A stretch of 64,000 bases of DNA, from the sequence record PP761450.1; one strand, 5' to 3'. Positions 1,408 to 49,019 of the stretch are shown one piece after another (the stretch's first letter is position 1; every line of letters starts with the position of its first letter). This DNA is from Escherichia phage LHE287. A program made the position numbers and the translations under genes. The notes beneath the pieces were generated by a model. The model was not told the DNA's origin. It made no database searches and saw nothing but the letters and a program-made list of their open reading frames with translations.

Positions 1408-3690
1408 TCAGACGATACAACTCTCACAATCAGGTTCCTCAGCCTGTTTCAGCTCTTCGTCTTCCTTGGCGTCTTTGTTTGTGTTGTAATACAGAGTCTT
1501 GCCACCCCACATATAGAACGACAGGATATCCTGCATCATCTTGGCGCGAGGGATCTTGCTGTCAGGGTACTTCTCTGGGTCATACCACGTGTTGGTACTG
1601 ATGGACTGGTCAACCCAGCGCTGGATGACAGCAGCGGTCTTCAGGTACTCAATACAGTCCAGGTCCCACTTGAGGTCATACATCGGCCCAAGGGTCTCAA
1701 CTTCCGGGACGACCTGCTTATAAGTGCCGTCCTTGCTACCCTTGATGCTCACCAAGCCCTTCGGTGGCTCAATGCCGTTCGTTGCGTTGAGGACCTGTGA
1801 GGAGCTTTCGGTAGGGGCTACTGCCAGCAGGGTGGCGTTGCGGATACCATAGGTCTTCAGATTATCCTTCAACTCATCCCAATCCAGCCCATATGCCATC
1901 CCTTCTGGCTTCTTGCCATTTGGTAGGATATCAAGTGGAAGCGGCTGAAGGTCGGCGGTGACCTGCCCATTATTGTGGATGGTTCCGCGTTTACACGCCC
2001 CGAACTTCATAGCCAGACGGTTGGACGCCTTGACCAGATAGAAGTGCAGGTGTGCCATCCACGCATCCAGCATTTCAAGACCAGCTGGTGAGCCATAGCC
2101 CGTGAAGTTCTTGGCCAGGAAGTGAGCCACGTTCACGATACCAACACCCAGAGGACGATAGTCTTCAACAGCTTTACGAGCCTGAATCGCTGGATAGTCC
2201 TGATATTCCAACAGCATGTCCAGCGCAGACACCAACACGAACGCCACGTCTTCCATTTCGGTCGGGTCTTCGAATGCTGTCAGGTTGAAGGAAGCCAGGG
2301 TGCACAGAGCCACGCGCCCGTTTTCATCGTTGTACTGCTCAAACTCACGGGTCGGCAGGGCGATTTCTAAACAAAGATTTGAAGAATAAATCGTGTCTAG
2401 GTTGAATGGACTGTATTCATTCATGTGATCGACAAATGCGATGTAGATGCGGCCTGTGTCCGAACGCTGGTCTAACAGCATCTGGAACACCTCTTCTGCC
2501 TGCAACTTCTTAGCACGAACCAAACCGGCATCGGCGGCCTTGATCATGTTCTCATACAGATTACGGAACTTGTCAACGTCAGCGAAGTATGCTTCATACA
2601 TTTCGCGGTTGTCTTTCGGGTCGAACAGATACAGAGGCTGCTTGGCAACAAGGCGCTCAAACATCACGCGGTTGATCTGAATGCCATAGTCGATACGGCG
2701 TTCGCGGTTTTCTTCAGTACCACGGTTGTTCTTCAGAACAACGACGTCATCGAACTGGTAATGCCACAGAGGGATGTACGCTGTTGCTGCACCACCACGA
2801 ATGCCGCCCTGAGAGCAAGATTTGAGTGCCCCAGTGAGATACTTGATGAATGGGATCAGGCCTGTGTGAACCATCTCTCCGCCGCGAATAGGACTACCAA
2901 TCCCACGGATTGCCCCGACATCGAAGCCGATACCCGCACGTTTGGACACATAGTCAACGATGGTCTTGGCTGTTGCGTTGATAGAGTTCAGGGTGTCATC
3001 AGTCTTGATTAACACACAGGAACTGAACTGACGGGTAGGAGTACGAACACCTGCCATAATCGGGGTGGGAAGACTGAACTTGCCTGTGCTGGCATATTCA
3101 TAGAACTTTTTCACCATCTCCAGGCGGCTGTCTTTGTCCCAGTTAGAGAACAACGCCATGGCGATGCCCATGTACATGACCTGAGGGGTTTCGTAGAAGA
3201 TCTTGCTGTCTTTCTTGGAACGGTCGCACAACAGGTACTTCTCAGTCAGCTGACCCATGGCCGCCCACGTGAAGTTCTTATCGCGTTTGTGATTGATGAC
3301 ATCGTTCAGCTCGTTGAACTCTTCGGTCGTGTAGAGATCAAGGAACTCACGATCATACACGCGCTGTTTGATGTTCTTGACGAAGATGTCCAGCAGGTGA
3401 GGCGGCTTGTACTGACCGTAGACAGCCTTGCGCAGATCATACGACTTCAGACGAGCAGCCACATACTGGTAATTGGGTTTGTCTACAGAGATCAGCGAAG
3501 CCGCAGCCTGGATGAGGATATCCTGAATGCGATCTGTTCTCATGTTGTCGGTGAACTGAATCTTAGATGCAGCGATCACCTCTGACATTGACACACCAGA
3601 CAGGCCATCACATGCGCGGTCTACGACTGCGTGTAGTTTCTCAATATCAAATGGGACAGAAGATCCGTCACGTTTTATAACGTTAATCAT
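1408..3690 (-). CDS. nrdA: class Ia ribonucleotide reductase large (alpha) subunit
   Basis: 760 aa; ATP-cone N-terminus (VIKRDGSSVPFD), active-site NxCxE (SNLCLEIALP), C-terminal CESC redox tail. Confidence 0.9.
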   Translation of the reverse strand: MINVIKRDGSSVPFDIEKLHAVVDRACDGLSGVSMSEVIAASKIQFTDNMRTDRIQDILIQAAASLISVDKPNYQYVAARLKSYDLRKAVYGQYKPPHLLDIFVKNIKQRVYDREFLDLYTTEEFNELNDVINHKRDKNFTWAAMGQLTEKYLLCDRSKKDSKIFYETPQVMYMGIAMALFSNWDKDSRLEMVKKFYEYASTGKFSLPTPIMAGVRTPTRQFSSCVLIKTDDTLNSINATAKTIVDYVSKRAGIGFDVGAIRGIGSPIRGGEMVHTGLIPFIKYLTGALKSCSQGGIRGGAATAYIPLWHYQFDDVVVLKNNRGTEENRERRIDYGIQINRVMFERLVAKQPLYLFDPKDNREMYEAYFADVDKFRNLYENMIKAADAGLVRAKKLQAEEVFQMLLDQRSDTGRIYIAFVDHMNEYSPFNLDTIYSSNLCLEIALPTREFEQYNDENGRVALCTLASFNLTAFEDPTEMEDVAFVLVSALDMLLEYQDYPAIQARKAVEDYRPLGVGIVNVAHFLAKNFTGYGSPAGLEMLDAWMAHLHFYLVKASNRLAMKFGACKRGTIHNNGQVTADLQPLPLDILPNGKKPEGMAYGLDWDELKDNLKTYGIRNATLLAVAPTESSSQVLNATNGIEPPKGLVSIKGSKDGTYKQVVPEVETLGPMYDLKWDLDCIEYLKTAAVIQRWVDQSISTNTWYDPEKYPDSKIPRAKMMQDILSFYMWGGKTLYYNTNKDAKEDEELKQAEEPDCESCIV

Positions 3691-3773
3691 GGTGTTCCTC
3701 GGGTTTGTTTACGCAGGTTTTATTATACGCCGCCCTCGTAGATTGAAGGCGGCAGGGAGGGTTGGTGAGTTAC

Positions 3774-4718: not shown

Positions 4719-5513
4719 TTAACTGAAACTCTTGTATGCTGCTGCGAGCTTCTTGTCGTACTGGTTCTTGGCATACGCCGGACCATTATAGCGCCGTGCA
4801 AATTCAGACCAGTTCTTGTCCTTCAGAGCCTGCCAGAGCTTGGCGTCAGCCTTGATGAACTTCACGAATGCCATCAAATGAGCACGTTCTCCTGTCAGGA
4901 AGTCGTTGAACATCTCCTTGGCGTTGGCATATCCACAGACCTGGCAGTTGAATCCCATGATCTGGAAGAGACCGTAAGAGGCGCTCTCGTACGCACAATC
5001 CTCATCGATGTTGATGGCCGCATGAAGTCGATCCAACTCCGCGTCGCCTCCCGTGTACCCGCCTGCGGAAGGACTGACCAACGTCGGGTACATATGTCCC
5101 ATGGCATTCGCCCGAGCCTGTCCGAACTTCGCCATCAGCTTCTTATACATGATGTGGCGCTCAAATAATGTCTTGATCTTACCTGACTTGGTGAAGCCCG
5201 TACCGCGCGACTCAACCTGATTCACCGCCTTGACAGAGGCAAGGTCAACACCCAGATCATTAGCAGCATCAATCAGGTCTGACTCAGTTAGATGATCCTG
5301 ATGGGCGTCTCCGGCGTTGCGAATAGCATAGGAGGTCTTTGGACCTACGATACCATCAATGACAAGCCCCGCACCCGCCTGAACAGTCTTGACGGCGTTC
5401 TCTGTTGCCTTGCCAAAGATACCATCAGCGACGAGGGTGAAGCCGATTTTGTTGAGGCTATTCTGAAGTGCCTTCACTTCAGTGCCACGGTTGCCAAGTT
5501 TTAGAATGGCCAT
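4719..5513 (-). CDS. endolysin: peptidoglycan-binding repeats plus muramidase-like C-terminal domain
   Basis: start refined to ATG 5513 (GGAGG SD; track start 5531 is TTG); two PG-binding-like repeats then YGLFQIMGFN...NWSEFARRYNGP region. Confidence 0.7.
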   Translation of the reverse strand: MAILKLGNRGTEVKALQNSLNKIGFTLVADGIFGKATENAVKTVQAGAGLVIDGIVGPKTSYAIRNAGDAHQDHLTESDLIDAANDLGVDLASVKAVNQVESRGTGFTKSGKIKTLFERHIMYKKLMAKFGQARANAMGHMYPTLVSPSAGGYTGGDAELDRLHAAINIDEDCAYESASYGLFQIMGFNCQVCGYANAKEMFNDFLTGERAHLMAFVKFIKADAKLWQALKDKNWSEFARRYNGPAYAKNQYDKKLAAAYKSFS

Positions 5514-5661
5514 AAGAAAATACCTCCACAATGAATGCAGAGGTATTTAAAGTGAAAGTGAACTACTCGAGGAGCTGGGGGAAGACTTTGTTCGAATGTG
5601 TCGGCAACCCAGAGAGTGCCAAAGAGGATTGAATGACTGCGATCTCCTCCCAAGACCTGAT

Positions 5662-6381: not shown

Positions 6382-6588
6382 TTAGTTCGGGCGAAATCTT
6401 ACAAACTCGCGAGCCAATTCGGCCTGCTCATCACTGATGGGAACCCCATGGAAGTCCGCCTGACCATTCTTCCAGCCGTGGATGAAACTCAGAGACTCTT
6501 CCCCAGATAAGACATACCCCTCACGAGATTTCAAGTACCCCCGCACGATCTCTCCGTCGTCCAGTTTGTTCAGTTCTTCTAACGTCAT
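6382..6588 (-). CDS. hypothetical small protein (68 aa)
   Basis: ATG overlaps the primase stop (ATGA), suggesting translational coupling. Confidence 0.45.
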   Translation of the reverse strand: MTLEELNKLDDGEIVRGYLKSREGYVLSGEESLSFIHGWKNGQADFHGVPISDEQAELAREFVRFRPN

Positions 6589-7643
6589 CGCACTTTCCTC
6601 AGTTCAGCAAATTGTAATGATGCGGCCATACCTTGGTAAACGTTCTTGGCGATTAGCTTCAGGAGGTCTTGTATGGACATGTTGCCCTTTGATGGCATAA
6701 CCATGTCGTTGATATCCTTCCAAGGAACGTCTGGTGGGAACAGTACAACCTTGACACCTTTATCTATCATCTTCTGAATACCGTCACACACCTGCGGGTT
6801 CCGGTACTGATTATCAGGGATATAAATGTCACCCTTCACGCTCAGTAGATCAGCGTCGGCCGATGCAAGACAGTTGGGTAGGAACAGGCTGTCAATCGGA
6901 CCTTCCACAACCAGCTTGGTCTTGTGAATGTTCACCCGGTCTTCACCATACACCTTAGTGTCTTCATCCTTGGGCTTGACTGTTGCGTAGCGCAGTGTCG
7001 CATTCTTGTCGAATGCACGCCCCTGAACGATCTTCATGCGACCATCCTGAGTCCAGAACGGAATCACCAGGCGCTCGTCATCGGGGATTTTCAGCTGCTT
7101 CTCAGGGTTCGTTTCGAACTGGAGTAGATCCTGGCGGAAGTGCTGTGTGTAATACAGGAGGGACAAAGTGCTCTCCGGCAGTCCACGCCACTGTACGTAC
7201 TGTCGAGCCTTATGGTCAGGCGGTAGCAGATCAAGCCGTAGCATATTGCCGAGGAGGCTCTCGTCGCGTTTCGCCGCCACCGAGCCAATACGGGCGGTCT
7301 GTGTCAGCTTTGGTAACGGCTTCAGGGAAGGAAGTGGTCTGCCCGACGTATCACCCAGCAGACGGAACTTCTCCATGTTGTATTCTGTTGAGAGGCGCTC
7401 ATCGAACTTCTTCAACCAGAACTCAAATGACCAGCCATTCATCTGGTTGCAGTTGTGGCACTTGAACCGGAAGCAGTCATGATCCCGATCATAGAAGAAG
7501 TATCCACGGCGCTTGTTAGCAGACTTCGTGGAGTCACCGCACAGAGGGCAACGGAAGTTCGCAACAGAACCCACGCGCTCCCACTTGAACTTGTCAAGGC
7601 GAGGTGACACGTTGTTGATAAATTGCTCGTCAAGAAATTTCAT
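6585..7643 (-). CDS. gp61: DNA primase (T4 gp61-like)
   Basis: zinc ribbon CPLCGDSTKSANKRRGYF...CHNCN resembles T4 gp61 N-terminus; TOPRIM-like VVEGPIDSL; start set to ATG 7643 (track start 7721 is TTG). Confidence 0.8.
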   Translation of the reverse strand: MKFLDEQFINNVSPRLDKFKWERVGSVANFRCPLCGDSTKSANKRRGYFFYDRDHDCFRFKCHNCNQMNGWSFEFWLKKFDERLSTEYNMEKFRLLGDTSGRPLPSLKPLPKLTQTARIGSVAAKRDESLLGNMLRLDLLPPDHKARQYVQWRGLPESTLSLLYYTQHFRQDLLQFETNPEKQLKIPDDERLVIPFWTQDGRMKIVQGRAFDKNATLRYATVKPKDEDTKVYGEDRVNIHKTKLVVEGPIDSLFLPNCLASADADLLSVKGDIYIPDNQYRNPQVCDGIQKMIDKGVKVVLFPPDVPWKDINDMVMPSKGNMSIQDLLKLIAKNVYQGMAASLQFAELRKVR

Positions 7644-7817
7644 TAGATCTTCTGCCTCTGGAACACTTCGGTCACAGTATAGTCTACACCACGACTTTGA
7701 GCTATACACAGTTGTTGCCAAGCCCTATACAAAATATTTGTTTACCAGCCGTGTAGTGTTCGAAGTGGGCGAAGCTGTCCAAGAGATTCATGTAGCTTTG
7801 TATGTGTCGGGGTAAAG

Positions 7818-7861
7818 ATTTTGCTCATTGTCCTTTCCTTTTGGTGAATAATGAGCAAAAT
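7818..7861. repeat. 12-bp inverted repeat with 20-nt spacer
   Basis: ATTTTGCTCATT ... AATGAGCAAAAT. Confidence 0.8.
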
Positions 7862-7885
7862 TATATGCCTTTATTTCGTATTGAC

Positions 7886-8239
7886 TTACGACAGCTGTTT
7901 CAGTTTGTAGATCGTCTGGTAACACAGCGTCTTGATTTCATCAAGAGTGTTCTGAAGGTGGGAGTCACACTGCTTGTAGATGCCATCGACGTCTATCACC
8001 ACACTGTTAATATAGGAGATAGGGTCTGGGTTGTACAATTTGATATTCTCGAATGATGGAACATACTGACCACCCGCACCGATGTATGCTTCGGTAAACG
8101 TGTCCAGCAAGTCCTCTAGATCCCCGTAGAACTCCCCGAGTGCCTTGTGCTTGGCATAGGATGTTGTAACGAAGTGTAAGGCATGAGAGTGGGCTATAGC
8201 AAGCAGTCCACGGTTGATGAAAATACTCGCATTGACCAT
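7886..8239 (-). CDS. hypothetical protein (117 aa)
   Basis: ATG 8239 with GAGGA SD; followed by 12-bp inverted repeat. Confidence 0.5.
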   Translation of the reverse strand: MVNASIFINRGLLAIAHSHALHFVTTSYAKHKALGEFYGDLEDLLDTFTEAYIGAGGQYVPSFENIKLYNPDPISYINSVVIDVDGIYKQCDSHLQNTLDEIKTLCYQTIYKLKQLS

Positions 8240-8250
8240 GATGTTGTCCT

Positions 8251-8285
8251 CAGAAAAAGAAATCCCCCTGTATTTAAGGGGGATT
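8251..8285 (-). terminator. rho-independent terminator after 8325..8630
   Basis: 9-bp stem AATCCCCCT/AGGGGGATT, then TCTTTTTCTG on minus strand. Confidence 0.7.
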
Positions 8286-18879: not shown

Positions 18880-19407
18880 TCAGATACCGATAAATTCATC
18901 AAAAGATCCAACAACCTTCTTCACCGAGATCTTGTCATTCTCAATCAGGAAGTTGCTGTCGTTTTTGGCTGCTGTAGCCCAGTCATCGGCAAGTTCGTTG
19001 CCTTCGTGTCCCGCATGACCCTTAACCCATTTTAGTTCAACATCACAAATTGAACAAACGAGATCATAGATTCTGAACAGATCTTTGATGAGTTCAACGT
19101 TCTTTTCTGGGAAACCCTGATACTCCCACTTCGTTCGCCATTCGGTGACACTCTTGATGGCATATTGGCTGTCAGACCAAATTGTTGCCTTTGGTATTCT
19201 GCGCTCACCCTTTCCTGAGAATGCCCACAGTAGCTTCAATGCGTTGGTCACACCCAACAACTCGGCGATATTGTTAGTGGAAGGGGGAGGTAGATGGCCG
19301 AAGAACACCTTCCATTGCATACCAGTTATTGGCCTGATGACAAATGCCCAGCCTGCGGCCTGGTTGGTCTTCGGGTTAGAACCCCCGTCAGAATAAATTT
19401 CTATCAT
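18880..19407 (-). CDS. rnhA: ribonuclease HI
   Basis: start set at MIEIYSDGG by analogy with E. coli RNase HI N-terminus; catalytic motifs SDGG, AELLGV, WSDSQY, GHAGHEGNELADDWA. Confidence 0.8.
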   Translation of the reverse strand: MIEIYSDGGSNPKTNQAAGWAFVIRPITGMQWKVFFGHLPPPSTNNIAELLGVTNALKLLWAFSGKGERRIPKATIWSDSQYAIKSVTEWRTKWEYQGFPEKNVELIKDLFRIYDLVCSICDVELKWVKGHAGHEGNELADDWATAAKNDSNFLIENDKISVKKVVGSFDEFIGI

Positions 19408-23381: not shown

Positions 23382-23437
23382 GATATAGTCACTCAAATGA
23401 AAGGGCAGCTTTATGATAAGCCGCCCGAGGTTATTGA

Positions 23438-24662: not shown

Positions 24663-25345
24663 TCGTTCTCCTTCATCATATTGTCACAGTCAACACGAGT
24701 CTGCTGGAGTTCGCGCGACATGCGAGGATCATCAAGGTTCACGCTCAGATTCGTGGCCAGGTCTTTCAGACCGTTCTGAACCCTGTCTTCAAAGTAATAA
24801 TCGTTCTCAACCAGCCAGGCTCTGAGACCAAGAGCGCGGGTGCGCCATTCCTTCTTCAGGATGCGATCAGAGGTCTGCGTGGCGCTGTATTCGAATACTT
24901 TGACGCACTGGTTGCCATCGTTGATGAGGTTCAGGTGACGGCGGCCTATCTGCACACCCTTCTGTAATGCCGGAGAAGGGAGCGAACGGCACTGTCTTAC
25001 GGTCATTCGGCCTTGGGTGCCCATACGCCCAGTCATGATCAAATCGCCAGCCTCCATGCCTCCACGGTTAAATTCGTCGTCATTGAGGTAGCCTTTGAGG
25101 TTATAGGCTCCCTGTTTGTAACGGTTGAACTCAATTCCGGCATTGACGACAGCGGTGGAGACGTTGCCTGTGTTCCAGAGTTCAGCGAAGTTCTCTATGG
25201 AACCAGACTTGTCGATGGCAACCGCCTGGGAGAACCCAGCACAATAGGAAAGGTCGGACCACAGTTTATCACCTGTGGAGTTCAGCTTGGCAGCGGCGGG
25301 TAATGCCAGACCAGCCAGCACAACCCCGAGGATTAAACGTTTCAT
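24659..25345 (-). CDS. secreted or membrane-anchored protein (228 aa)
   Basis: ATG 25345 with AAGGAGAA SD; N-terminal MKRLILGVVLAGLALPAAA. Confidence 0.5.
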   Translation of the reverse strand: MKRLILGVVLAGLALPAAAKLNSTGDKLWSDLSYCAGFSQAVAIDKSGSIENFAELWNTGNVSTAVVNAGIEFNRYKQGAYNLKGYLNDDEFNRGGMEAGDLIMTGRMGTQGRMTVRQCRSLPSPALQKGVQIGRRHLNLINDGNQCVKVFEYSATQTSDRILKKEWRTRALGLRAWLVENDYYFEDRVQNGLKDLATNLSVNLDDPRMSRELQQTRVDCDNMMKENE

Positions 25346-25424
25346 GGCGATTCTCCTTATTTCATTGGATGAAATGATAGGCGGCTCACCATGATGAGTA
25401 AAGGGATTCAATAAACTATCGTAT

Positions 25425-32905: not shown

Positions 32906-33013
32906 AATGTAGCCTCATGGTGTATTGTACAGCCGTATTATACTGTGATGCACAAATTGAAACGCCCAGCATTTACGCTGGACGTTATTGATATTGAAAA
33001 GGTTTTGACAAAC

Positions 33014-36437: not shown

Positions 36438-36551
36438 GATGTAATCTTCCTGTTTCAGTTCAAATGTGCGCCCCGTTTGCTAGGGCGCTTCGTTTAAGTG
36501 AGGTCAATATACGCTGGATTGAGTTATTGAAGAACGAAGTAAAGGAAATCT

Positions 36552-37775: not shown

Positions 37776-37843
37776 GGTATCCTCTTAGAATACGAAAACA
37801 GAGGCCATTATAGCCTCTGTTGTTTAGTGAATAACTGTATATC

Positions 37844-38732: not shown

Positions 38733-39197
38733 TTATTCGCTTTTTGCCTTCGTAGGCCGGATGATGTATTTTGGAACCAGTTTCCATTCAGGAACCTGAT
38801 CGTGTTTAACCACTTTAATGCGAGACATATCGGCTGCTTCAGTGACCTGCTCAGGATGAATGACCTTCACCATGTTCCACTGCTCCAGCAGCTTGATGAT
38901 TCGGTTCATCCTCAGGACATCTTCGCGGTTAAATCCGTTGTAATGCCCGTCCAGCATAAATAGATGCTTAAAGTGGACGATATAATACTTGCCACACTTA
39001 TGAAGAATATGGCAAGTCTGATACAGAGTATTCGGCTCTTGGCGCGTGTTTACCCCAATTCGACTCAGTGTTTCCTTGATCCCCAGGAATATACCTGGCC
39101 GATCTTGGTTCAATTGAACTTCAACCATACAATCAACGATGCTGGCCTCATCGTTGACTGCTGAAATATTCAATATGTCTAGCGTATTACGCGCCAT
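38733..39197 (-). CDS. regA: translational repressor RegA
   Basis: YQTCHILHKCGKYYIVHFKHLF and EWKLVPKYIIRP resemble T4 RegA (YQSCHILQKKGLYYIVHFKEM, EWKLVPKYTIGN); first ATG has AAGGGGA SD, internal start at 39128 is alternative. Confidence 0.75.
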   Translation of the reverse strand: MARNTLDILNISAVNDEASIVDCMVEVQLNQDRPGIFLGIKETLSRIGVNTRQEPNTLYQTCHILHKCGKYYIVHFKHLFMLDGHYNGFNREDVLRMNRIIKLLEQWNMVKVIHPEQVTEAADMSRIKVVKHDQVPEWKLVPKYIIRPTKAKSE

Positions 39198-40643: not shown

Positions 40644-40723
40644 TTCAGCCTCGTGTAGAAGAATCATTTCAAATAGGCGGGGAACGCCCCGCCCACACAT
40701 TATAGCATCAGGCTGGAGATTGA

Positions 40724-46095: not shown

Positions 46096-46824
46096 TTACT
46101 TCAGCGCGTTCTTCAGATTATCGGAACCGATGCTGTTGATGACACCTCCGGCGCAGATATCTTTCGCCCACTCTGATATCACGTTGGCAAAAGAGAAGTT
46201 AAGACACTTACCAACCATGTCTTGGATATGGGCTAACTCTGCTGCAATACCGTTCGTGATGTCTTGAGCAATAGAGGCTACTGATGCGACAGCAGTGTCG
46301 ATGGCTTGAGTAACTTCAGCAGCCAGTGCCCGAATAGCATCAAGACCAGCACTGACACCCTGAGCTACCAACTCAGCCAGCTCATTCATCTTGTTTGTGA
46401 TAGTTGTGAGAACACTTTGCATGGTGTTGATCCACTGTTTGCCGAGGTTCTGAATAACCCCAAATGCATTATTGATCAGATCACAGTTGTTCGGTTCTCG
46501 ACCTATAGACTTCAGGGCGGACTTATACGACACAGATGTACCGATGCGGGAATATGCCTCGTTCACTGACTGGTCGCCATAGTTGTTCAAAGTAGTGATG
46601 CTGTTGTTGGCTGAGTTGAACATTGCTGTAGATTCGTTGAGTTTGGCTGTAGTCAACCCACCTGCCGTCAGCGCTTCCTGAATCTGCGCATTTCCGGTGT
46701 TAGCCAGTGACGCTGCAGTCGCCTTACCACTGGTGATTAACCCCTGTGAGGCGCTGCTGAGGGACGGGAGAGGATTGGTAAAGGCGTTGCCCTGTGATAG
46801 GGCGTCATAGATCTGTGCGTTCAT
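46096..46824 (-). CDS. hypothetical A/S/T/N-rich protein (243 aa), possibly structural
   Basis: ATG 46824 immediately after 10-bp-stem terminator hairpin. Confidence 0.55.
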   Translation of the reverse strand: MNAQIYDALSQGNAFTNPLPSLSSASQGLITSGKATAASLANTGNAQIQEALTAGGLTTAKLNESTAMFNSANNSITTLNNYGDQSVNEAYSRIGTSVSYKSALKSIGREPNNCDLINNAFGVIQNLGKQWINTMQSVLTTITNKMNELAELVAQGVSAGLDAIRALAAEVTQAIDTAVASVASIAQDITNGIAAELAHIQDMVGKCLNFSFANVISEWAKDICAGGVINSIGSDNLKNALK

Positions 46825-46856
46825 AAGAAAATACCCCCATGGATGATGGGGGTATT
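46821..46856 (-). terminator. rho-independent terminator
   Basis: 10-bp stem AATACCCCCA/TGGGGGTATT then TTTTCTT on minus strand. Confidence 0.6.
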
Positions 46857-46862
46857 TAGGGA

Positions 46863-47969: not shown

Positions 47970-47998
47970 AGTATACGGGGTTTATTGAAGAATTAAAC
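47970..47998 (-). promoter_or_regulatory. early-type promoter, cassette copy C (-35 GTTTAA, -10 TATACT)
   Basis: minus strand GTTTAAttcttcaataaaccccgTATACT; -35 sits inside a 10-bp-stem hairpin (47975-48003). Confidence 0.5.
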
Positions 47999-48023
47999 CC
48001 CGTATATTGAATAAATTTAAAAT

Positions 48024-48956: not shown

Positions 48957-49019
48957 GGTACAACCCTCGGATAGTAGACGGGGCAATAATACCTCTCACC
49001 CCGTTATTGAAATGTTCTT

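Follow-up and report, generated by a model that had tools for sequence, protein, structure and literature searches.

What is a perfect 12-bp inverted repeat doing at positions 7818–7861 of the DNA of Escherichia phage LHE287, in an apparently empty gap in front of the DNA primase gene? The DNA analysed here, called the window, comprises 64,000 nucleotides (nt) of the phage (record PP761450.1), and an earlier sequence-only reading had taken the repeat for an operator or an RNA processing structure. Our analysis points, with moderate confidence, to a hairpin in the RNA that covers the translation start of a predicted nuclease gene, orf00103, with the −10 hexamer of a putative promoter overlapping its 5′ arm; RNA that reads through from upstream would be blocked, while RNA begun at the embedded promoter would be translated.

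Relatives of the window are the Escherichia phages vB_EcoM-ZQ1 (ZQ1) and RPN242, with 95–96% identity, and Shigella phage Ag3, with ~91%, and the phage is assigned on this comparison to the Ag3/ZQ1-like members of the Aglimvirinae (Ackermannviridae). The minus strand carries nearly all genes of the window, including those that flank the repeat.

Position and Fold of the Inverted Repeat

Sequence inspection and a repeat finder agreed on the two arms, ATTTTGCTCATT at 7818–7829 and AATGAGCAAAAT at 7850–7861, which are complementary at 12 of 12 positions and separated by a 20-nt spacer, just as the sequence-only reading had reported. Its placement of the repeat between the end of a 117-aa gene and the start of the primase gene also holds, with the stop codon at 7886 and the primase ATG at 7643, both on the minus strand. 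It had missed the minus-strand orientation of the genes and the fact that the repeat, 175 nt away from the primase ATG, sits on a Shine-Dalgarno (SD) sequence and an ATG (7828–7826, minus strand) that opens an open reading frame (ORF) of only 28 codons.

Read along the minus strand, the order of elements is TAA-G-TCAAT-N14-TATAAT, overlapping ATTTTGCTCATT as the 5′ arm, followed by a 20-nt loop with AGGA and then by A-ATG-AGCAAAAT as the 3′ arm. The TCAAT box (7880–7884), which would be the upstream element of a promoter-like motif, lies at about −31 to −27 from the putative transcript start, and the TATAAT hexamer (7860–7865) shares its last two bases with the beginning of the 5′ arm. In the RNA, the 5′ arm AUUUUGCUCAUU (7850–7861), delimited by sequence, repeat finder and fold, is the strand that pairs with the AUG. 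The loop (7830–7849), part of which is paired by a short inner helix in the predicted fold, contains the SD sequence AGGA at 7839–7836, 7 nt before the ATG, and the 3′ arm AAUGAGCAAAAU (7818–7829) holds the start codon (7828–7826) together with codons 2 and 3 of orf00103, as annotated in Ag3. All of these features are on the minus strand.

Taken alone, the repeat is only mildly improbable. In first-order Markov simulations of the window (n = 60), searched for perfect 12-bp inverted repeats with a spacer of 3–60 nt, 0.18 such repeats were expected per 64-kb window and at least one was found in 10 of the 60 simulations, against three distinct ones observed. The RNA fold of the repeat stands out clearly, at −15.9 kcal/mol (z = −5.5) with no shuffle out of 200 as good; all folding and opening energies in this work are predictions. 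A window-wide scan of gene starts detected no other real start with a comparable perfect start-codon stem. The only Rfam match returned at a permissive threshold, to the potC RNA motif (RF01751), was rejected, as it scored 25.2 bits where the gathering score is 44 and fell on the plus strand, which is antisense to the genes here.

Deletion of the Gene behind the Start Codon

In Ag3, where the sequence is identical, the 203-aa orf00103 is annotated as starting at the ATG in the hairpin; the gene occupies 2852–3463 of the Ag3 stretch compared (L002), and its stop codon overlaps the primase start (TAATG). An intact gene of 203–205 aa is present at the same position in SKML-39, RPN242, LIMEstone1, Vi01, CBA120, Det7 and Klebsiella Taipeivirus phages. 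About 425 nt of orf00103 are missing from the window and from ZQ1, and the result is a frameshifted stub of 28 codons (MSKIFTPTHTKLHESLGQLRPLRTLHGW*; 7742–7828, minus strand), recognized as an orf00103 remnant by alignment with the intact RPN242 and SKML-39 genes. The deletion junction falls in a 13–14-nt direct repeat, with TTACCCCGACACAT near the 5′ end of the gene (7815–7802) and TTACCCGGCATAT further 3′; the alignment indicates that the gene served by the hairpin is lost from LHE287 through a deletion between these two direct repeats, a loss that had likewise gone unnoticed before. The former 3′ end of orf00103, comprising the last 68 nt of its coding region (7644–7711, minus strand), is now the leader of the primase gene, with GAGG 11 nt before the ATG, where formerly stop and start overlapped in TAATG.

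Divergence from the intact orthologues amounts to 24–25% in the leftover middle segment, 1–7% in the promoter/hairpin block and 1.3% in the last 76 nt before the primase gene. The leftover orf00103 segment thus appears to be decaying, and the promoter/hairpin block and the primase-proximal segment appear to be kept. Read in this way, the 240-nt 'intergenic' gap is a deleted putative nuclease gene together with its surviving, presumed control region. The gene is probably deleted in PC3, PH4 and A221 too, as single-piece full-length matches suggest; the sequence confirmation concerns ZQ1 only. Since orf00103 is absent from some phages, it is dispensable.

Searches of Pfam and NCBIfam gave no match for the orf00103 family, and the best match by sequence in the PDB reached only E = 0.23. 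The AlphaFold model of the protein has a predicted local distance difference test (pLDDT) score of 92.8, and Foldseek placed 3dnx at the top (probability 1.00), followed by PaqCI, NucS/EndoMS, BamHI and Card1. The predicted structure, for a protein present in the relatives only, has the alpha/beta core and the D...(D/E)xK motif of the PD-(D/E)xK enzymes, and D43, E57 and K59 are invariant across 35 orf00103 homologues. By its predicted fold, the product is most likely a PD-(D/E)xK (restriction-endonuclease-like) nuclease. N-terminal homologues of orf00103 were also observed in Shiga toxin (Stx)-converting phages and in Vibrio phages.

In the relatives, the junction between the upstream gene and the primase gene is a hotspot of gene gain and loss (L003, L010, L061, L062, L065 and L066). 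The HNH endonuclease F-LimV lies between orf00103 and the primase gene in LIMEstone1, Taipeivirus-like phages have inserted ORFs of 159–169 aa (phrog_30076) ahead of orf00103, and L066 has an ORF of 91 aa after it.

Conservation and Compensatory Changes of the Stem

The stem is AUUUUGCUCAUU / AAUGAGCAAAAU with a loop of 20 nt and AGC as codon 2 in the Aglimvirinae, AUUUUGCCCAUU / AAUGGGCAAAAU with a loop of 24 nt and GGC as codon 2 in Kuttervirus, and UUGCCCAUU / GAUGGGCAA with a loop of ~27 nt and again GGC in Taipeivirus. The arms therefore stay while the loop length moves between 20, 24 and ~27 nt, and an AGG in the loop is kept in all three genera. In an alignment of 13 distinct sequences, the stem positions were paired in 96% of cells, compared with 39–47% when the register was slid, and the changes comprised one pair altered on both sides and one U-A pair that had become U·G.

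Further lineages were collected through homologues of the orf00103 protein and extended the 13-sequence set. Across them, the upstream strand tracks codon 2 (AGC, GGC or GCC), with the matching forms UUGCUCAU, UUGCCCAU and UUGGCC/UUGGUUAU; for GCC, the strand is UUGGCC in L068 and UUGGUUAU in L063. Because the upstream strand matches codon 2 across all three codons, two stem positions have changed on both sides. The U·G and G·U wobbles pair in the sense RNA only, and are compatible neither with pairing of the antisense strand nor with a symmetry of the DNA. As far as the alignments tell, the stem is retained across genera by compensatory changes that track codon 2, and because of this conservation with compensatory change, the repeat is clearly non-random.

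Phages with an insertion at this junction carry a further observation. In Taipeivirus-like phages, where an unrelated ORF is inserted between the upstream gene and orf00103, the orf00103 hairpin is gone and the gene is coupled to the insert through TAATG. The FKP14-type insert has its own 13-bp stem over its own AUG, of unrelated sequence, with a G·U/G-C variant and directly after TATAAAT, and a second distinct insert (L065) shows TCTAT-N14-TATCAT and a stem that buries its SD sequence. Since the inserts bring their own start-site hairpins, the structure travels with the translation start and not with the 3′ end of the upstream gene.

The Promoter-like Motif in the 5′ Arm

A −10-like hexamer (TATAAT, TATCAT, TATTAT or TATAAAT) adjoins or overlaps the start-pairing strand in every lineage, in intergenic DNA that is otherwise unalignable between genera, and TATAAT is invariant in all the Aglimvirinae, Kuttervirus and Taipeivirus sequences compared despite fully diverged flanks. 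Intergenic DNA makes up 7% of the window and holds 9 of its 25 TATAAT copies, an enrichment of about five-fold, and TCAAT-N14-TATAAT is present three times against 0.01 expected. The relaxed form, TCAAT-N14-TAnnnT, was found seven times against 1.8 expected, always on the minus (sense) strand and at gene boundaries; the sites lie at 3722–3746, 7860–7884, 19029–19053, 23413–23437, 36506–36530, 40699–40723 and 48986–49010. Downstream of these sites stand nrdA, the primase unit, the gene for the gp55 late sigma factor, the clamp loader gene and three genes of unassigned function, and an N13 variant on the same strand (32937–32960) precedes a phosphoribosyl pyrophosphate (PRPP)/nicotinamide adenine dinucleotide (NAD)-salvage gene. 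Sites of the N14 type are conserved in LIMEstone1 (six against 1.46 expected), and the corresponding arrangement has the TCAAT box with N16 in Kuttervirus and TCTAT-N15 in Taipeivirus.

Because it precedes replication and nucleotide-metabolism genes, the TCAAT-N14-TATAAT class is probably early or middle, and, going by the motifs, the TATAAT at 7860–7865 would accordingly belong, as its −10, to a non-late promoter serving the orf00103-primase unit. The motif may possibly represent a candidate middle or early promoter class of the Aglimvirinae. Neither a promoter at the orf00103 junction nor the TCAAT class was found in the genome papers and records of Ag3 and LIMEstone1; one TCAAT-N14 site is visible within 'Torf095' of Table S2 of the Ag3 paper, and the 'middle promoter' given for LIMEstone1 at the clamp loader gene is a different element from the TCAAT-N14-TATAAT site. 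The arrangement is analogous to T4 middle promoters, in that both would pair a good −10 with a short conserved box near −30 while lacking a usable −35, and both stand before replication genes. The MotA box of T4 middle promoters is (a/t)(a/t)(a/t)TGCTT(t/c)A; however, the box here is TCAAT.

The late core in the window is cTAAATA(c/t), all ten copies of CTAAATA are on the sense strand, and it precedes the scaffold, tail tube, sheath, head-closure and endolysin genes. A late-promoter reading of the TATAAT was rejected, as the late core here is cTAAATA, found before structural and lysis genes, and the TATAAT is followed by TTT.

The Proposed Gate and Its Predicted Energies

Upstream of the hairpin lies the 117-aa gene (7886–8239, minus strand), which matches Pfam DUF5856 (E = 6.6e-30) and has a late-type motif upstream; the LIMEstone1 record describes its counterpart as a 'confirmed structural protein' with a 'putative late promoter'. 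A terminator hairpin predicted by the terminator scan at 8261–8285 (minus strand), with the TAAATA late core in its loop, precedes the gene and corresponds to Torf105 in Table S2 of the Ag3 paper. Between 7886 and 7643 the scan of the window predicted no terminator, and the Ag3 and LIMEstone1 papers and records list none between the DUF5856 gene and the hairpin, so the DUF5856 gene is a likely source of read-through transcripts. Downstream in the transcription unit lies the gp61-like DNA primase gene (6585–7643, minus strand; phrog_47 DNA primase, E = 5.6e-80), which is annotated as primase in the relatives.

Read-through transcripts from the late DUF5856 gene would carry both arms. The full stem would bury the AUG and part of the SD sequence, the nuclease gene would go untranslated, and the primase, coupled to it via the TAATG overlap, would probably be silenced too on this RNA. 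Transcripts from the embedded TCAAT-N14-TATAAT would instead start inside the 5′ arm, would be unable to form the stem and would be translated; a start 6–8 nt after TATAAT would leave only the last 3–5 nt of the 5′ arm. In LHE287 itself, the promoter would presumably still drive the primase gene, and the hairpin would guard only the 28-codon stub. A more specific version, which we put forward tentatively, gives the gate a reversed polarity, in which only its own early or middle RNA would allow translation of the nuclease-primase operon, and late read-through RNA from the neighbouring virion-protein gene would be silent.

The energy differences that such a gate would need were computed for the window, Ag3, CBA120, Vi01, a Klebsiella phage and the FKP14 insert. 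Opening the region from −15 to +12 was predicted to cost 13–19 kcal/mol on RNA begun 80 nt further upstream and 3–9 kcal/mol on RNA begun 6–8 nt after the hexamer, a drop of 8–12 kcal/mol from long to short RNA. Because this pattern was being looked for, a blind control was run on 47 ordinary gene starts from the window, using the identical energy calculation and a truncation fixed at −24. Among the controls, the opening-cost difference averaged 1.4 kcal/mol with a standard deviation of 2.0; its 95th percentile lay at 3.9 and its maximum at 8.8 (n = 47), whereas the 12 target starts gave 9.5, 9.9, 15.3, 13.7, 7.2, 10.6, 11.7, 6.2, 10.1, 2.2, 3.3 and 8.9 kcal/mol, with 10 of the 12 above the control 95th percentile. 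Only two controls were outliers, the endolysin gene (5513) and the gene at 25345, and both are weaker cases of the layout with a promoter within a hairpin.

Comparison with Known Start-Site Hairpins

In T4 gene e, a stable stem buries the SD sequence and/or the AUG on long read-through transcripts, and a promoter lies in the DNA of the 5′ strand, whose transcripts lack that strand and get translated (PMC3014915). A stem that forms only on read-through RNA is described for the T4 genes e, soc, 49, I-TevI, I-TevII, I-TevIII and segB, and for mobE of Aeh1 (PMC3014915, PMC2988022). In the T4 cases, the embedded promoter is late (gp55, TATAAATA-type) and the gated gene is late as well, and in gates of the I-TevI type, a nuclease gene is kept silent on transcripts of the host gene by a hairpin at its start, which the promoter bypasses (PMC2988022).

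The element at 7818–7861 shares with gene e a start-region stem, and a putative promoter overlaps its 5′ strand. Its start region is buried as in T4-type gates, with the AUG and codons 2 and 3 in the 3′ arm and the SD sequence partly paired in the loop helix; unlike in gene e, it is the AUG that is paired, rather than mainly the SD sequence. The embedded element also differs from the late promoter before a late gene of the T4 gates, being TATAAT with TCAAT at N14, of the class that precedes replication genes, and the late gene here is the upstream one, so that the predicted polarity is reversed and late read-through RNA would be the silent one. On these comparisons the element would work like the T4 gates, as a variant rather than a plain member, with a temporal assignment that we infer from the motifs.

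The likeness extends to the I-TevI, segB and mobE gates, since here too a nuclease gene would stand before a replication or nucleotide-metabolism gene with a hairpin at its start and a bypass promoter, both as predicted, and the locus is likewise a hotspot for mobile inserts (the HNH enzyme F-LimV in LIMEstone1 and the extra ORFs in Taipeivirus). The fold of the orf00103 product, however, is predicted to be PD-(D/E)xK and not GIY-YIG or HNH. The product is not known to be a homing endonuclease, and the gene is conserved in most Ackermannviridae rather than sporadic and would have a non-late promoter.

Points against the Gate and Alternative Explanations

Several points weigh against the gate. 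The site at 7860–7865 has a perfect −10, but as a canonical sigma-70 promoter it falls short, its best −35 being AAGTCA (three of six matches to TTGACA, with a 16-nt spacer), and a consensus sigma-70 promoter scan of the window did not call it. The spacing between box and hexamer varies between genera (14, 15 and 16 nt), and no mapped transcript 5′ ends or expression data for Ackermannviridae were found in the literature searched, which for promoters of this family and of Kuttervirus likewise yielded nothing of use. As to the covariation, 321 of 500 shuffles equalled the count of one double-sided pair change in the 13-sequence alignment, and the sequences compared represent perhaps eight independent solutions, so that the covariation rests on few events. 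Several lineages and the Serratia phages have a terminator upstream of the hairpin, which would limit read-through there, and two lineages are weak in the energy comparison (2.2 kcal/mol in L067 and 3.3 kcal/mol in L068). Lastly, the gated gene is gone from the window, so the hairpin may have no present function, and its perfect conservation there could reflect a recent deletion and the overlap with the promoter; in LHE287 it may be a relic kept by that overlap and by the short time since the deletion.

Some of these points would suit a constitutive damper, in which the hairpin would be present on every orf00103 transcript and would keep a possibly toxic nuclease low, with the TATAAT being no promoter or with transcript starts lying upstream of the arm. 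The hairpin and its compensatory changes fit such a damper equally well, and so do the poor −35, the silent promoter scan and the lack of a mapped transcript start in the literature searched. We nevertheless consider it unlikely, because it leaves unexplained why an invariant −10 stands beside the anti-AUG strand across stems of differing sequence and register, why TCAAT-N14-TATAAT is enriched before replication genes, and why the block is conserved after the loss of the gene.

The hairpin could also belong to the 3′ end of the late DUF5856 mRNA, acting as a weak terminator, blocking 3′ exonucleases or being cut by an RNase. Stable 3′-end hairpins can protect mRNA, and this one begins 24 nt past the DUF5856 stop codon, where there is no canonical terminator. 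It resembles a rho-independent terminator in being an intergenic hairpin just after a stop codon; however, its stem is AU-rich (three G-C pairs of 12), its loop measures 20 nt here and 20–27 nt across the genera, CUUUACCCCG follows the stem on the sense strand, neither strand has a U-tract and the terminator scan was silent, all of which bears out the view of the sequence-only reading that no normal terminator is present here. RNase III requires a stem longer than these 12 AU-rich bp, which argues against processing by that enzyme. The 3′ arm, moreover, is tied to the downstream start codon, with the stem covarying with codon 2, and the insertion of an ORF after the DUF5856 gene removes the orf00103 hairpin and gives the new ORF a start hairpin of its own; a role at the 3′ end is therefore improbable. 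The suggestion of an RNA processing structure was right about the molecule, RNA, and probably wrong about the function: the 3′ arm carries the start codon of a gene and the codons next to it, the loop holds the SD sequence and the −10 overlaps the 5′ arm, and because of this the hairpin is read as a translational gate and not as a cleavage site.

For a DNA operator, at which a dimer of a protein from phage or host, perhaps the nuclease acting as an autorepressor, would bind the half-sites and block the overlapping promoter, one may cite the overlap of the repeat with the −10 and the start-site region, as well as the precedent of T4 I-TevI, which represses its own promoter through an overlapping operator (PMC2988022). 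Yet a palindromic operator should show a fixed half-site spacing and usually further copies of the half-site across the regulon, whereas the spacer here is 20, 24 or ~27 nt depending on the genus, with the centre-to-centre distance of the arms moving from 32 to ~36 bp. A search for the half-site beyond the arms, which the earlier reading had proposed, found none in the window (five matches at ≤2 mismatches against 6.8 expected). In addition, the U·G and G·U changes keep the RNA pairing and break the DNA symmetry, the arms of other lineages differ in register and sequence, and phages in which the nuclease gene is deleted still carry the repeat. The operator proposal is thus left without support, and we regard it as very improbable. 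Finally, a chance palindrome without function is hardly credible, for although about one in six 64-kb windows would have a perfect 12-bp repeat by chance, the conservation in three genera with compensation amid diverged flanks, together with the fold z of −5.5, means that it is effectively refuted by the comparative data. A replication origin of the T4 oriF/oriG kind, made up of a middle promoter and an AT-rich unwinding element, was considered as well; no search was aimed at it, and the data give no hint of one.

Related Hairpins and Other Loci in the Window

The endolysin gene (4719–5513, minus strand) has a hairpin at 5513–5560, AAAUACCUC...GGAGGUAUUU, with the TAAATA late core in the 5′ arm and, as the 3′ arm, the SD sequence GGAGG, followed by UCUUAUG. 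Its start has a predicted opening cost of 19.8 kcal/mol on read-through RNA against 10.9 kcal/mol on truncated RNA, and the orthologous hairpin is listed in the Ag3 paper merely as terminator Torf098. The arrangement closely parallels the gate of T4 gene e, which encodes a lysozyme unrelated to this endolysin. The gene from 25345 to 24659 (minus strand) has, in the region 25345–25420, TTTACT-N17-TATCAT, a more canonical sigma-70-like promoter, with TCATGGTGA in the promoter spacer pairing with TCGCCATGA, which covers the AUG; its opening-cost difference of 7.8 kcal/mol is the second highest among the 47 controls.

Another perfect 12-bp repeat, AAATACCCCCAT / ATGGGGGTATTT with a 5-nt loop, lies at 46829–46857 (minus strand) before the gene that starts at 46824; its 5′ arm contains the late core cTAAATAcccc, and its 3′ arm is G-rich, a possible SD sequence, and is followed by UCUUAUG. 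A perfect 13-bp repeat, TATACGGGGTTTA / TAAACCCCGTATA with a 9-nt loop, was found at 47972–48006, just past a minus-strand stop codon and with no U-tract; TTCAAT stands immediately before the stem, with another copy in the loop.

Elements of the −10 type also lie in or against terminator-like hairpins at 8261–8285, 37797–37821, 3722–3760 and 40660–40723 (minus strand). The loop of one such hairpin, AACAGAGGC...GCCTCTGTT, contains TATAAT; the hairpin at nrdA has TCAAT in its loop and TATAAT against its stem; and at the clamp loader gene, TATAAT stands 4 nt before the terminator stem. This placement suggests compact terminator/promoter units whose new transcripts escape the hairpin. Elsewhere in the window, a homologue of the RegA-type translational repressor is encoded at 38733–39197 (minus strand; phrog_242, E = 3.3e-53), with cTAAATA upstream.

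Implications

For the LHE287 window alone, the practical weight of the finding is small because the gated gene is gone. For annotation, it means that some of the terminator hairpins reported for these genomes share sequence with promoters and ribosome sites. If the gate is real, phages far outside the T4 group would share the design of a promoter placed inside an inhibitory hairpin that chooses which transcripts are translated, and its temporal direction would be opposite to that of every documented T4 case. The reversed polarity, if true, would amount to a late shut-off of replication-gene translation without a repressor protein, and the motif would offer a first handle on a non-late promoter class in the Ackermannviridae, whose members find wide use in biocontrol and therapy.

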